In this document: in pieces, positions 35,961 to 38,764 of the stretch
Layout: each line of letters opens with the position of its first letter
Position numbering within the stretch: the stretch's first letter is position 1
Virus record (IMG/VR): IMGVR_UViG_2839610755_000009
DNA: 55,878 nt
DNA from: a virus
Lineage: Duplodnaviria; Heunggongvirae; Uroviricota; Caudoviricetes
Direction: 5' to 3' (one strand)
Notes under the pieces: generated by a model
The model's input: only the letters and a program-made list of their open reading frames with translations
Databases searched by the model: none
What the model was told of the DNA's origin: nothing
Made by a program: the position numbers and the translations under genes

Positions 35961-36731
35961 ATGCATCGTATAGACACGAAAACCGCGCAGAAGGATAAGT
36001 TCGGCGCGGGTAAGAACGGTTTTACCCGTGGTAACCCCCAGACCGGCACGCCTGCCACCGATCTGGATGATGACTACTTTGACATGTTGCAGGAGGAACT
36101 TTGCAGCGTGGTGGAGGCATCCGGTGCCAGCCTGGAGAAGGGGCGGCACGACCAGTTACTTACCGCACTTCGCGCGCTGCTGTTAAGCCGCAAGAATCCG
36201 TTTGGCGATATCAAATCGGATGGCACTGTGCAAACGGCTCTCGAAAACCTTGGTTTGGGAGAAGGCTCTGCATTACCTGTTGGTGTGCCTGTTCCATGGC
36301 CTTCAGCCACACCGCCAACAGGCTGGCTGAAATGCAACGGTGCGGCTTTTTCTGCTGAAGAATACCCGGAACTGGCAAAGGCTTATCCGACAAATAAATT
36401 GCCTGATTTACGTGGTGAGTTTATTCGTGGCTGGGATGACGGGCGCGGTATTGATGCAGGACGTGTTTTATTGAGCATTCAGACAGGGATGCTGGAAAAA
36501 CACCGCCATATTGTTGTTGCCAATGATGGTTACGACACAAAAGATGAATGGGAACTGGCTACGATTTTCAAAAAGACATACACACAAGGACGGGGACTTG
36601 ATGCCACAAATACAGGAGGGAGTCTGATCCCATCACCGACACTTCATTCACGAGGGAGTATCGGTAATACTGGCGGGAGTGAAACCCGTCCACGAAATAT
36701 TGCATTTAACTATATCGTGAGGGCTGCATAA
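35961..36731 (+). CDS. tail fibre protein (constant N-terminus + current variable C-terminus)
   Basis: 256 aa; crossover motif LENLGLGEG at constant/variable junction. Confidence 0.8.
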
Positions 36732-37333
36732 TGGATAACGCCGTATTAAATAGCGAGCTTATTGCCACGAAGGCGGGGAATATTACCGTCTATAACTATG
36801 ATGGTAAAACTCGGGAATATATTTCTACTTCAAATGAATATCTTGCCATTGGTGTCGGTATCCCTGCATATTCCTGTCTGGATGAACCTGGTATACATAA
36901 GGCGGGTTATGCTATCTGCCGTTCGATGGATTTAAACTCATGGGAATATGTGCCAGACCATCGCGGTGAAATCGTCTATAACACCGAAACGGGAGACGCC
37001 AAAGAAATCACAGCTCCGGGTGATTATCCTGAAAATACAACCACTATCGCCCCGTTAACGCCATTCGATAAATGGGATGGTGAAAAATGGGTGACAGATA
37101 CTGAGGCACAACACGGTGCCGCAGTAGAAGCGGCAGAAGCACAGCGCCAGTCACTGATTGATGCAGCAATGGCTTCCATCAGTCTGATTCAACTGAAATT
37201 GCAGGCCGGACGTAAACCGACGCAGGCAGAAACAACCAGACTTAACGCTGTGCTGGATTACATTGACGCGGTGACGGCAACAGATACCAGCACCGCGCCG
37301 GATGTCATCTGGCCTGAACTGCCGGAGGCGTAG
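36731..37333 (+). CDS. tail fibre assembly protein
   Basis: 200 aa, conserved C-terminal DAVTATDTSTAPDVIWPELP. Confidence 0.8.
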   Translation: MDNAVLNSELIATKAGNITVYNYDGKTREYISTSNEYLAIGVGIPAYSCLDEPGIHKAGYAICRSMDLNSWEYVPDHRGEIVYNTETGDAKEITAPGDYPENTTTIAPLTPFDKWDGEKWVTDTEAQHGAAVEAAEAQRQSLIDAAMASISLIQLKLQAGRKPTQAETTRLNAVLDYIDAVTATDTSTAPDVIWPELPEA

Positions 37334-37757
37334 GCCATTCAATATCTGGCGCACTGGAGGTATCAACCAGCTCCAGTGCATCCAGATAATCCAGCCACAA
37401 ATTATATTGCGCCAGTTCCTCACCTTTCAGACGACCAATAGCGGCTTTACCGGGCCATTGTTTACTGTTCATGTATTCGTTGGCCTGGTTAATTAGTAGC
37501 TGTCTTTCTGATTCAGTAATTTCAATAAGTTCTTCATGCGTGGGTGGAGGAATATCTGCCCACGCAGGCAGCCCATCATCTCCGGCAATACGGATTTTTC
37601 CTTGTGGCGGTTCAGCCATAAACTCACTGATAATATTTTGATTTACTTCCTTAGCGTCTGATAAATCCCATCCCTCTGATTTATATTTATCAATCATATC
37701 CACAGGGAAAAAAGCATTATGCCTTGCGCTATAAACATATTCATTCATATAAATCAC
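37305..37757 (-). CDS. alternative tail fibre assembly protein (inverted orientation)
   Basis: 150 aa with matching C-terminal motif LELVDTSSAPDIEWPTPP; convergent overlap. Confidence 0.8.
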   Translation of the reverse strand: MIYMNEYVYSARHNAFFPVDMIDKYKSEGWDLSDAKEVNQNIISEFMAEPPQGKIRIAGDDGLPAWADIPPPTHEELIEITESERQLLINQANEYMNSKQWPGKAAIGRLKGEELAQYNLWLDYLDALELVDTSSAPDIEWPTPPAVQAR

Positions 37758-37768
37758 CCTGAATAAAA

Positions 37769-38142
37769 TTACTCACCAACAGCCCACCAACTGTAATTCA
37801 TCGATACCGTGTCGCTGGTTGATGACGTTCTGTAAGCAGAATTAAAGCCGGTTAACGTTGGGCCTTCTGCAGTCATCACGAACCCTCGCCCAGCGCCTAA
37901 AGGCGCACCGCCATCACCAGAATGAGTAAGCATGGCGCAGTCCGCTTTTTTGGAGAAAGGGATGCTGAATGTAATTCTCATTGTTTGCGTCGATAATGTC
38001 GGCGTAACCGCACCACGACCATATTGCAGGATTTTCCCGTTGGGTAATTTCATCCATCCATCACCACTGGCAAAAGAGGCCATGTCCGGTATCTGATTTT
38101 CCCCTGTCCCCACATCCCGTTTTGCCGCTTCTCCCAAACCAA
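37769..38142 (-). CDS. alternative tail fibre C-terminal segment (no own start)
   Basis: Reading frame homologous at crossover (NVGLGEAAK) to the expressed fibre; expressed only after inversion. Confidence 0.7.
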
Positions 38143-38209
38143 CGTTTAAGAAAATGCAGAGATTATGGCTAACTGGCATCATCCCCGGTTTTTACTCAGG
38201 GGAATGCTC

Positions 38210-38764
38210 ATGCTTATTGGCTATGTCCGCGTATCAACAAATAACCAGAATACGGAATTACAGCGTAATGCGCTGGAGTGTGCAGGATGTGAGCTGATTT
38301 TTGAAGACAAGATAAGCGGTACAAAGTCCGACAGACCAGGACTGAAAAAGCTGCTCAGGACATTATCGGCAGGTGACACGCTGGTGGTCTGGAAACTGGA
38401 CCGACTGGGGCGCAGTATGCGGCATCTTGTCGTGCTGGTGGAGGAGTTGCGCGAACGAGGCATCAACTTTCGTAGTCTGACGGATTCAATTGATACCAGT
38501 ACCCCAATGGGGCGCTTTTTCTTTCATGTGATGGGTGCCCTGGCTGAAATGGAGCGTGAACTGATTGTTGAACGAACAAAAGCTGGACTGGAAGCAGCTC
38601 GCGCACAGGGACGAATTGGTGGACGTCGTCCCAAACTTACACCAGAACAATGGGCGCAGGCCGGGCGATTAATTGCATCAGGCGTTCCTCGCCAAAAGGT
38701 GGCGATCATCTATGATGTTGGTATATCGACACTGTATAAGAAGTTTCCGGTCGGAGATAAATGA
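38210..38764 (+). CDS. pin: serine DNA invertase (Pin/Gin/Hin family)
   Basis: MLIGYVRVSTNNQNTELQRNALECAGCE... resolvase catalytic domain and C-terminal HTH. Confidence 0.95.
   Translation: MLIGYVRVSTNNQNTELQRNALECAGCELIFEDKISGTKSDRPGLKKLLRTLSAGDTLVVWKLDRLGRSMRHLVVLVEELRERGINFRSLTDSIDTSTPMGRFFFHVMGALAEMERELIVERTKAGLEAARAQGRIGGRRPKLTPEQWAQAGRLIASGVPRQKVAIIYDVGISTLYKKFPVGDK

Follow-up and report, generated by a model that had tools for sequence, protein, structure and literature searches.

The tail-fibre locus at positions 36250–38764 of the DNA analysed here (the window, i.e. the whole stretch of 55,878 nucleotides) raises the question of whether it still functions as an inversion switch that joins alternative tips to a fixed fibre stem, which enzyme would operate it and what its inversion would change. 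The window derives from Escherichia coli O157:H7 and lies in the thrW prophage, a fuller version of the Sakai prophage "Sp1". Mu-like baseplate genes (gp45 to gp48) are located upstream of the switch. In sister strains the element sits within a complete myovirus-type prophage. Because the prophage of the present strain is interrupted by two IS copies, no virion is expected from it and a host-range effect is moot there; a flip in this strain is thus probably without effect on virions. The invertible segment, its flanking sites and the reading frames on either side consist of the following features:

35961–36251, + strand: constant fibre stem Sc, 97 codons, outside the segment (open reading frame; 100% identical to the first 97 amino acids of e14 StfP)
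36238–36263, no strand assigned: left 26-bp crossover site, CTCTCGAAAACC-TT-GGTTTGGGAGAA, core at 36250–36251 (26 of 26 positions equal to the e14 left site)
36252–36731, + strand: fibre tip A (SvA), 159 amino acids, Collar domain (Pfam Collar, E = 1.9e-15; 61.5% identity to the C-terminal part of e14 StfE)
36731–37333, + strand: TfaA, tail-fibre assembly chaperone of 200 amino acids, cognate to tip A (Pfam Caudo_TAP, E = 4.8e-32; 88% identity to e14 TfaE)
37305–37748, − strand: TfaB, tail-fibre assembly chaperone of 147 amino acids, cognate to tip B (Pfam Caudo_TAP, E = 2e-31; RefSeq CDS)
37769–38140, − strand: fibre tip B (SvB), 123 amino acids, gp53-like C-terminal domain (Pfam Gp53-like_C, E = 1e-11)
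38129–38154, no strand assigned: right 26-bp crossover site, TTCTCCCAAACC-AA-CGTTTAAGAAAA, core at 38141–38142 (25 of 26 positions equal to the e14 right site)
38143–38182, − strand: short leader external to the segment, reading MMPVSHNLCIFLNV when translated from the first ATG (38182; RefSeq uses the second ATG, 38179)

The initial annotation had based its proposal of an invertible segment on exact 15-bp inverted repeats at 36250–36264 and 38128–38142, and the 15-mer TTGGTTTGGGAGAAG was indeed found in exactly two copies in the window, on the + strand at the former and on the − strand at the latter position. With up to two mismatches allowed, 0.13 chance matches would be expected, and two matches were reached in 1 of 100 shuffles; the inverted repeat can be extended to 20 nt at 95% complementarity. 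The 15-mer takes in the core dinucleotide and inner half-site of a 26-bp Din-type site together with one further base: the functional sites are the 26-bp elements of 12-2-12 layout, and the exchange takes place at the two bases on the outer side of the 15-mer. The features that mark membership in the Din family, namely two inverted 26-bp sites with imperfect 12-bp half-sites and the same asymmetric 2-bp core, are present, the core reading TT at the left and AA at the right site on the + strand and being identical after correction for orientation. The published repeat of the e14 element, TTGGTTTGGGAGAAGG, contains the same 15 bases (PMC12529663). In the great majority of related loci, as well as in e14 and Mu, the core of the right site is located 67.5–68.5 bp upstream of the invertase start. 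A multi-site system (shufflon-like, or comparable to Min of p15B) was rejected, since only two AAAC[C/G]NN[C/G]GTTT cores occur in the whole window; among the related loci, two sites were present in 46 of 75 and three in only one.

Relative to the reading frames, the left repeat copy lies in frame at codon 97 of the fibre gene 35961–36731 and the right copy lies at the 5' end of the opposite-strand open reading frame 37769–38182; the repeats are thus situated, as had been stated, at the constant/variable junction and at the start of an oppositely oriented alternative C-terminus. The two convergent tail-fibre assembly genes claimed for the interval between them are likewise present (both Caudo_TAP proteins) and share 29 bp where their 3' ends overlap. 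At the sequence level both tips are in frame with Sc: tip A is at present joined to the stem as a 256-aa fibre, tip B after inversion would give a 220-aa fibre, and the fused 220-aa fibre gene is annotated in strain 119, which carries the flipped form. TfaB, 54% identical to e14 TfaP (112 aa), is silent in the present orientation; SvB shares 98% identity with a tip of the P2-like phage pro483. The architecture is that of e14, with a 5' stem outside the segment and two opposed, promoterless 3' tips inside, each with a chaperone gene of its own downstream. In a comparison of 48 related viral loci, the Collar-type tip was in the expressed position in 24 cases and in the silent one in 16. A Hin-like promoter flip was rejected: promoter-like matches in the region (4 versus 4.6 in shuffles) did not exceed chance level, none of them points outward from the segment, and the segment is bounded by coding junctions on both sides.

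To the right of the segment, three further features are of relevance to the enzyme and its surroundings:

38210–38764, + strand: pin, serine DNA invertase of 184 amino acids (Pfam Resolvase, E = 9e-52; HTH_7, E = 5e-13)
38231–38294, no strand assigned: candidate Fis-dependent recombinational enhancer in the 5' end of pin
38764–38805, no strand assigned: hairpin where the convergent genes pin and PD-T4-3 meet (from fold energy)

The adjacent gene had been assigned to the Pin/Gin family, and its product, a Resolvase plus HTH_7 protein, agrees with this assignment: it is 94.6% identical to PinE and 78.5% identical to Gin, and matches the Gin structure 3UJ3 over its full length (E = 1e-93). The start of pin was placed at 38210, like those of PinE and Gin, and not at the first ATG of the open reading frame at 38165. 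According to the 3UJ3 alignment, the catalytic residues are intact, the motifs YVRVS9T and KLD64-R65-LG-R68 being the same as in Gin, for which the catalytic role of S9 has been documented (PMC3575834). By its sequence, Pin is classed with Gin, Cin and Hin in the Din family, i.e. small serine recombinases (about 190 aa) with an N-terminal catalytic domain and a C-terminal helix-turn-helix. Inversion by this family requires Fis together with negative supercoiling, and its members can replace one another.

Catalysis at this locus is most readily ascribed to the adjacent Pin, by analogy with the related systems. The e14 P segment, with the same repeat, provides a precedent for a different arrangement: the invertase PinQ from the Qin prophage is reported to flip it with higher efficiency than PinE does (PMC12529663); as some O157 genomes harbor several regions matching the query sequence, inversion might also proceed mainly in trans by another serine invertase, to which the adjacent Pin would contribute little. 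This explanation is rather unlikely, however, in view of the single matching region in many genomes of either orientation, of the intact state of Pin and its close identity to PinE, itself an inverter of e14, and of the locked state of the pinE mutant (PMC12529663).

Several residues of Pin point to the same Fis-assisted type of reaction as described for its relatives. M114 is the wild-type residue of Gin and no known Fis-independence mutation is present, and Q150, R153 and L154 align to Hin Q151, R154 and L155, which are reported to be uniquely conserved in Fis-dependent invertases. In the stretch GLKKLLR, aligned with the helix-B sequence of Hin, the residues K, K and R fall on the positions of the basic residues Hin 47, 48 and 51. 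Within the 5' end of pin, two G-N13-C 15-mers were detected whose positions within the gene are shared by the invertases of O157, e14 and Mu; the pair spans 64 bp and its proximal centre is 96.5 bp away from the core, which agrees with the published geometry of the Hin enhancer, an element of 65 bp with its two Fis sites at the ends, located approximately 100 bp from one recombination site. The candidate 15-mers match the degenerate Fis consensus poorly at the AT-rich and Y-R positions, and the dip in synonymous diversity at the candidate enhancer is weak (0.166 versus 0.229, p ~0.04; the 62 distinct invertase genes are closely related and thus provide little power), with 14 of 159 windows being as low or lower in synonymous diversity. 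Based on its geometry and the degenerate consensus, a Fis-dependent enhancer inside the 5' end of pin is suggested, and inversion may, by analogy, depend on Fis and this enhancer.

The initial annotation had further proposed that the segment inverts, and complete genomes corroborate this proposal. The orientation of the window was detected at 100% identity in approximately 28 complete genomes, and the sequence flipped in silico, with all 2,901 bases identical, in approximately 32; when all colinear matches were counted, 85 genomes had the window orientation versus 80 with the flipped form. The opposite outcome envisaged at that time, the detection of only one orientation, is contradicted by these numbers. 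The near-identical cattle isolates 114 and 119 revealed zero differences over 42,901 bases after flipping of 36250–38142; without this step, mismatches between them begin at 36265 and end at 38127, so that the breakpoints lie inside the repeats. Strain 118 differs in orientation from strains 139 and 133 at an identical chromosome length (5,453,897 bp in all three). As the flip is the sole difference between strains 114 and 119 within 42.9 kb, it is concluded that the O157:H7 lineage harbors an active switch.

The degraded state of the prophage in the present strain and in Sakai Sp1 would also be compatible with a fossil switch, in which the sites and the invertase are relics and the two orientations an old polymorphism maintained by descent. 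The identity of strains 114 and 119 save for the flip, the different orientations within one isolate series of equal chromosome lengths, and the intact invertase reading frame with all of its catalytic residues render this explanation highly improbable. Still less credit is due to an origin of the two orientations from RecA-dependent homologous recombination at the short repeats or from assembly error. Inverted repeats are present at the locus, and assemblers can misorient segments bounded by repeats; an identity of 15–20 bp, however, is far below the usual need of homologous recombination and too short to confuse long-read assemblies. Moreover, the exact 12-2-12 Din layout and the fixed distance to the invertase were encountered in the great majority of related loci examined, and the breakpoints are precise in approximately 60 independent complete genomes. 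In consequence, the difference between complete O157:H7 genomes at this locus has a trivial and reversible cause and should be taken neither as a phylogenetic signal nor as a misassembly. No earlier report of the O157 inversion was found; in the Sakai prophage paper, Sp18 but not Sp1 is said to contain an invertible region.

With this site architecture, the in-frame fusions, the intact invertase and both orientations with breakpoints in the repeats, the locus is interpreted (at a probability of about 0.9) as an active switch with two states, of the kind known from the e14 "P segment" and belonging to the Din family, in the O157:H7 thrW prophage. According to this mechanism, Pin dimers would bind both inverted 26-bp sites, which would be brought together with the Fis-bound enhancer in the 5' end of pin; Ser9 of Pin would cut the central AA/TT dinucleotide, one subunit pair would turn by 180 degrees, and religation would leave bases 36252–38140, a piece of 1.9 kb, in flipped orientation. 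Late operon transcription would enter from the left via the fixed 97-codon stem, so that inversion would pick the tip and the matching chaperone to be expressed: the Collar-type tip and TfaA with the 256-aa fibre in state 1 (the present one), the gp53-like tip and TfaB with the 220-aa fibre in state 2. By analogy with Mu and P1, the tips would set the receptor specificity and the flip would swap host-range determinants. The mechanism of invertible fibre switches has been known since the 1980s, and the present switch adds an ordinary example to the e14/Mu/P1 family, which has long been known; as a confirmation of a known mechanism, the result carries little scientific weight.

A separate issue is the cassette in the silent slot. 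The leader 38143–38182 supplies it with an ATG, and in RefSeq the silent cassette is annotated as a free-standing gene in both orientations, the fibre being named differently in the two states. This leader is either a by-product of annotation or else the counterpart of K-12 "StfE2". For StfE2 of e14, masking of phage receptors was claimed in 2025 on the basis of overexpression and docking (PMC12529663). In analogy, the silent-slot open reading frame 37769–38182 (14-codon leader plus gp53-like tip) might, in the present orientation, be produced as a separate protein masking surface receptors, and the locus might act as a defence toggle domesticated by the host. The window state is equivalent to the K-12 "inverted" state, the silent slot being occupied by a reading frame of 137 aa (leader plus gp53-like tip); the switch module is intact in the heavily degraded remnants Sakai Sp1, F1273 and e14; and a defence gene adjoins the switch, PD-T4-3 in the O157 prophage and McrA in e14. 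If true, the silent-slot protein and the PD-T4-3 nuclease would constitute a small defence island outliving the remainder of the prophage, which would explain the intact module in Sakai Sp1, F1273 and K-12 e14.

A role in defence is nonetheless doubtful. No promoter-like site was found near the silent-slot reading frame, and the strong hairpin at 38764–38805 (−22.5 kcal/mol, z = −3.7 on the + strand; −18.1 kcal/mol, z = −2.4 on the − strand), probably a bidirectional terminator, would block read-through from the right, so that transcription of the silent slot from the convergent PD-T4-3 gene is unlikely. The leader peptide differs between O157 (MMPVSHNLCIFLNV) and e14 (MMPFACYFFIFINV), BLAST detected no similarity between the gp53-like tips of the two elements, and the support from K-12 is limited to the overexpression and docking data mentioned above. 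Furthermore, the approximately 50:50 distribution of the orientations among genomes suggests the absence of strong selection. PADLOC assigned neither the fibre nor the silent tip nor Pin to a defence family. If the 2025 report on e14 defence holds, O157:H7 would offer a natural near-isogenic set in both states for testing.

Compared with known systems, the switch shares its gene order with the e14 P segment of K-12 (stfP-tfaP-tfaE-stfE-pinE), and the crossover sites (26/26 and 25/26 positions), the stem (100% identity over 97 aa) and the invertase (94.6%) are identical or nearly so; the same tip classes, Collar and gp53-like_C, are paired in both elements, and the distances between core and invertase (67.5 bp in e14, 68.5 bp in O157) are 1 bp apart. 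The e14 element is, however, a prophage remnant inserted at icd, whereas the O157 element resides in another prophage, at thrW, which is complete in sister strains. StfE is only 61.5% identical to tip A, and the StfP tip is without BLAST-detectable similarity to tip B. The two elements also differ in the interval between the repeats (1,863 bp in O157 versus 1,797 bp in e14) and in the downstream cargo (PD-T4-3 versus McrA), and the e14 orientation of the MG1655 reference is opposite to that of the window. Related tips are present in the P2-like Escherichia phage pro483 (SvB 98%, SvA 61%), where they are situated on opposite strands approximately 1 kb apart; the phage backbone and the fibre stem of pro483 differ from those of the O157 prophage.

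The G segment of Mu, inverted by Gin, has in common with the O157 locus a fixed Sc, two invertible cassettes of Sv plus chaperone, and the invertase beside the right site. The gix sites have the same 26-bp 12-2-12 layout, and the annotated G-segment boundaries fall on the core, although both Mu sites are one identical 26-mer with the core GA/TC instead of AA/TT. Unlike the O157 element, the Mu segment is approximately 3 kb in size, with a long Sc (~170 aa) and long tips, and no similarity of the O157 fibre proteins to the Mu chaperones U and U' or to Mu Sc was detected. The Hin/hix system of Salmonella is of the same recombinase subclass and has the same AA core, the Hin residues contacting Fis and the enhancer are conserved in the O157 Pin, and the candidate 15-mer pair matches the geometry of the Hin enhancer. 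In contrast to Hin, which flips a promoter and thereby turns genes outside the segment on or off, the O157 flip is a gene-fusion switch that places promoterless 3' ends onto a fixed 5' end.

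The tail-fiber segment was found in both orientations among 5,426 complete E. coli genomes, which were searched with a flipped query obtained by in silico reverse-complementation of positions 36250-38142. About 28 genomes carried the window orientation and about 32 the flipped form, each with 100% identity across the full 2,901 bases (85 versus 80 genomes when all colinear matches covering 80% or more of the query were counted); the segment inverts, as the initial annotation had proposed, and is not confined to a single orientation. In a single series of cattle isolates (strains 113-141), both orientations were encountered at matching chromosomal coordinates, the chromosome comprising 5,453,897 bp in strain 118 (window orientation) as well as in strains 139 and 133 (both flipped). 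Base-by-base comparison of strains 114 and 119 over 42,901 bases revealed mismatches exclusively within window positions 36265-38127, and flipping of 36250-38142 abolished every difference. In consequence of the occurrence of both orientations and of this strain comparison, the inversion is real and recent, with its breakpoints inside the repeats. A fossil switch is excluded by such near-isogenic pairs (strains 114/119).

Features of the invertible segment and the adjoining invertase gene (window positions; Pfam domains in parentheses)
35961-36731: tail-fiber ORF (phage tail Collar domain)
36238-36263: left crossover site, CTCTCGAAAACC-TT-GGTTTGGGAGAA
36731-37333, plus strand: tail-fiber assembly protein (Caudo_TAP)
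37305-37757, minus strand: tail-fiber assembly protein (Caudo_TAP)
37769-38182, minus strand: silent-slot fiber tip ORF (gp53-like fiber C-terminal domain)
38129-38154: right crossover site, TTCTCCCAAACC-AA-CGTTTAAGAAAA
38210-38764, plus strand: invertase ORF, pin (Resolvase and HTH_7)
38231-38245 and 38280-38294: candidate Fis 15-mers inside the invertase gene

The 15-bp inverted repeats reported in the initial annotation are exact: the 15-mer TTGGTTTGGGAGAAG has precisely two copies in the window, at 36250-36264 (+) and 38128-38142 (-), and no further copy was detected there with up to two mismatches permitted (0.13 matches expected by chance at this threshold; two obtained in 1 of 100 shuffles). 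In an independent repeat search, the pair grew to 20 nt with 95% complementarity. The left copy is positioned in frame at codon 97 of the 256-aa ORF 35961-36731, i.e. at the postulated constant/variable junction, and the right copy lies in opposite orientation near the 5′ end of the 137-aa gp53-like ORF 37769-38182, the suspected alternative C-terminus; the two convergent tail-fiber assembly genes (both Caudo_TAP) are indeed enclosed by the repeats. Once the bases flanking the repeats are included, two 26-bp sites emerge, with 12-bp half-sites on either side of a 2-bp core (see PMC3798978 for the site definition in this recombinase subclass). The core is AA/TT at both sites if orientation is considered, a condition needed for productive religation. 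Since the entire window has just two such cores, the arrangement constitutes a two-state switch, and a shufflon is rejected. The 15-mer covers the core plus the inner half-site common to both sites and one extra base; strand exchange would thus be expected at its two outermost bases.

The constant fiber stem Sc (97 codons) is located outside the segment, downstream of Mu-type baseplate genes (gp45, gp46, gp47/J, gp48). In the present state, Sc and the Collar-type tip A form a 256-aa fiber, directly followed by the chaperone gene TfaA; in the inverted state, Sc is fused in frame to the gp53-like tip B, resulting in a 220-aa fiber followed by TfaB, and this fused gene is annotated by RefSeq in the flipped strain 119. 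No promoter-like sites above chance were present inside the segment, in keeping with cassettes that lack promoters of their own and are transcribed from the late operon upstream. The 3′ ends of the convergent chaperone genes have 29 bp in common (37305-37333), with the final 9-10 codons of one gene lying opposite those of the other; an overlap of identical size is shared by tfaP/tfaE of e14, the E. coli K-12 prophage element.

The adjacent 184-aa invertase, correctly assigned to the Pin/Gin family by the initial annotation (94.6% identity to K-12 PinE, 78.5% to Gin), could be aligned over its full length to the sequence of the Gin crystal structure (E = 1e-93) and retains Ser9 and the D64/R65/R68 cluster. 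Position 114 is Met as in the wild type (M114V renders Gin Fis-independent, PMC3575834). With regard to the residues reported as uniquely conserved in Fis/enhancer-dependent invertases (PMC3798978), Q, R and L align to Hin Q151, R154 and L155, and basic residues occupy the helix-B positions. That another invertase catalyzes the inversion in trans appears improbable: the e14 copy of this repeat is inverted by PinQ, but the adjoining Pin is intact and K-12 pinE mutants are reported to be locked (PMC12529663). The site core is 68.5 bp distant from the invertase start codon, compared with 67.5 bp in both e14 and Mu and 67.5-68.5 bp in the great majority of related viral loci with a site beside the gene. 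It is implausible that the two orientations result from homologous recombination or misassembly across 15-20 bp, which would not account for an invertase gene lying at a constant distance from sites of Din architecture.

By homology, a Fis-dependent enhancer is likely to reside inside the invertase gene. In Hin, the enhancer measures 65 bp, carries a Fis site (G-N13-C, AT-rich center) at either end and lies about 100 bp from the nearer recombination site. A candidate G-N13-C 15-mer pair is present at gene nt 22-36 and 71-85, positions shared by the invertase genes of O157, e14 and Mu; with a 64-bp span and a proximal center 96.5 bp from the core its geometry fits, but internally the 15-mers agree poorly with the Fis consensus. 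Synonymous codon diversity among 62 distinct invertase genes was only modestly lower in codons 8-29 (0.166 versus 0.229 elsewhere; one-sided p = 0.04), with values as low or lower in 14 of 159 windows.

Just downstream of pin, the PD-T4-3 gene (38825-39598, minus strand) encodes a GIY-YIG protein that matches the anti-phage family PD-T4-3 of PADLOC over its full length (E = 2.4e-140); it occupies the slot of the McrA restriction enzyme of e14 and is kept as ECs0285 in Sp1, a prophage of strain Sakai. The hairpin between these convergent genes (38764-38805; -22.5 kcal/mol, z = -3.7) is probably a bidirectional terminator. RefSeq treats the cassette in the silent slot, in either orientation, as a separate gene whose ATG lies beyond the segment; the product is a 136-aa 'gp53-like domain-containing protein' in the window orientation (37769-38182, minus strand) and a 172-aa 'tail fiber protein' in flipped strains (21762-22280 in locus L003). 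This is either an annotation artefact or the counterpart of the K-12 'StfE2' chimera, an outside leader plus gp53-like tip through which P-segment inversion was claimed in 2025 to act against phages (PMC12529663). We regard an equivalent anti-phage device in the window as unlikely: a positional equivalent of StfE2 (37769-38182) is present and a full-length defense gene adjoins, but no promoter was found for this ORF, the strong hairpin makes read-through from the right unlikely, the leader peptide is not conserved in translated sequence, the tip has no BLAST-detectable similarity to that of e14, and the orientation is near 50:50 across genomes.

The region matches E. coli O157:H7 chromosomes at 100% identity; the prophage there adjoins tRNA-Thr(CGT), thrW, and in strain Sakai this locus is annotated as a 10.6-kb remnant, 'Sp1', with the P4-like 'Sp2' coming next. 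An apparently complete prophage, with terminase, portal, HK97-type capsid, sheath, tube, tape measure, baseplate, fiber and pin genes, is found in some strains, among them 114 and 119. The window contains two identical 1,310-bp IS629/IS1203-type copies in direct orientation: That at 16387-17696 substitutes for 322 bp including the start (5′ end) of an HNH endonuclease gene, and that at 32565-33874 cuts off roughly the last 12 codons of the gp45-like gene for baseplate V. Because of these disruptions, the prophage of the window strain is very probably unable to build virions. The copies flank a head and tail gene block of about 14.9 kb; in strain F1273, one IS copy is left and all DNA between the two is gone, so that the window and F1273 seem to represent two stages of an IS-IS deletion. 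Immediately to the right, a P4-like satellite prophage (about 42100-54300; integrase, psu, ogr/delta-like, sid-like, primase; 'Sp2' in Sakai) holds genes annotated as 'ABC-three component system', apparently defense cargo.

One scan of viral contigs yielded 80 loci with invertases 89-100% identical. Their sites are highly conserved and the core-to-core distance varies from about 1.0 to 2.0 kb, indicating that different cassettes are exchanged around constant sites; the single value of 4,093 bp belongs to an IMG/VR contig (L074) with three Din-type sites (26, 1971, 4119) upstream of its invertase, an arrangement that may be tandem or more complex. Of 48 two-site loci, 24 had a Collar-type tip related to tip A in the expressed slot and 16 had one in the silent slot. 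The P2-like phage pro483 carries opposite-strand tips 98% identical to tip B and 61% to tip A. In Sakai Sp1, both sites are retained along with the two chaperone genes, the silent tip, pinE and the downstream gene, but fiber stem and tip A are different. All its morphogenesis genes are lost, yet the switch module (8630-12278 in L087: both sites, four cassette genes, pinE, PD-T4-3) is intact, its fiber stem directly abutting a remnant of replication gene P. No paper on inversion at this O157:H7 locus was found; the Sakai prophage study mentioned an invertible region for Sp18 only and left out that of Sp1.

The family has been known since the 1980s, and the invertase is already labelled pinE by RefSeq. 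The observation made in the initial annotation holds throughout, and its interpretation is right: the window's switch is an e14-type Pin/P-segment switch. The published e14 repeat (5′-TTGGTTTGGGAGAAGG-3′) includes the same 15 bases (PMC12529663), and a search for the site motif recovered the e14 crossover sites, which agree with those of the window at 26/26 (left) and 25/26 (right) positions; it also recovered the Mu gix sites, for which the annotated G-segment boundaries corresponded exactly to the central dinucleotide. In e14, the same two tip classes are found with gp53-like_C in StfP and Collar in StfE; according to this placement, the window is in the opposite state to the MG1655 reference. 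By analogy with Mu G, P1 C and e14 P, the tips would set receptor choice (PMC4272514; PMC3575834). The gene-fusion logic of these three systems fits the window's switch, in contrast to the promoter flip of Hin.
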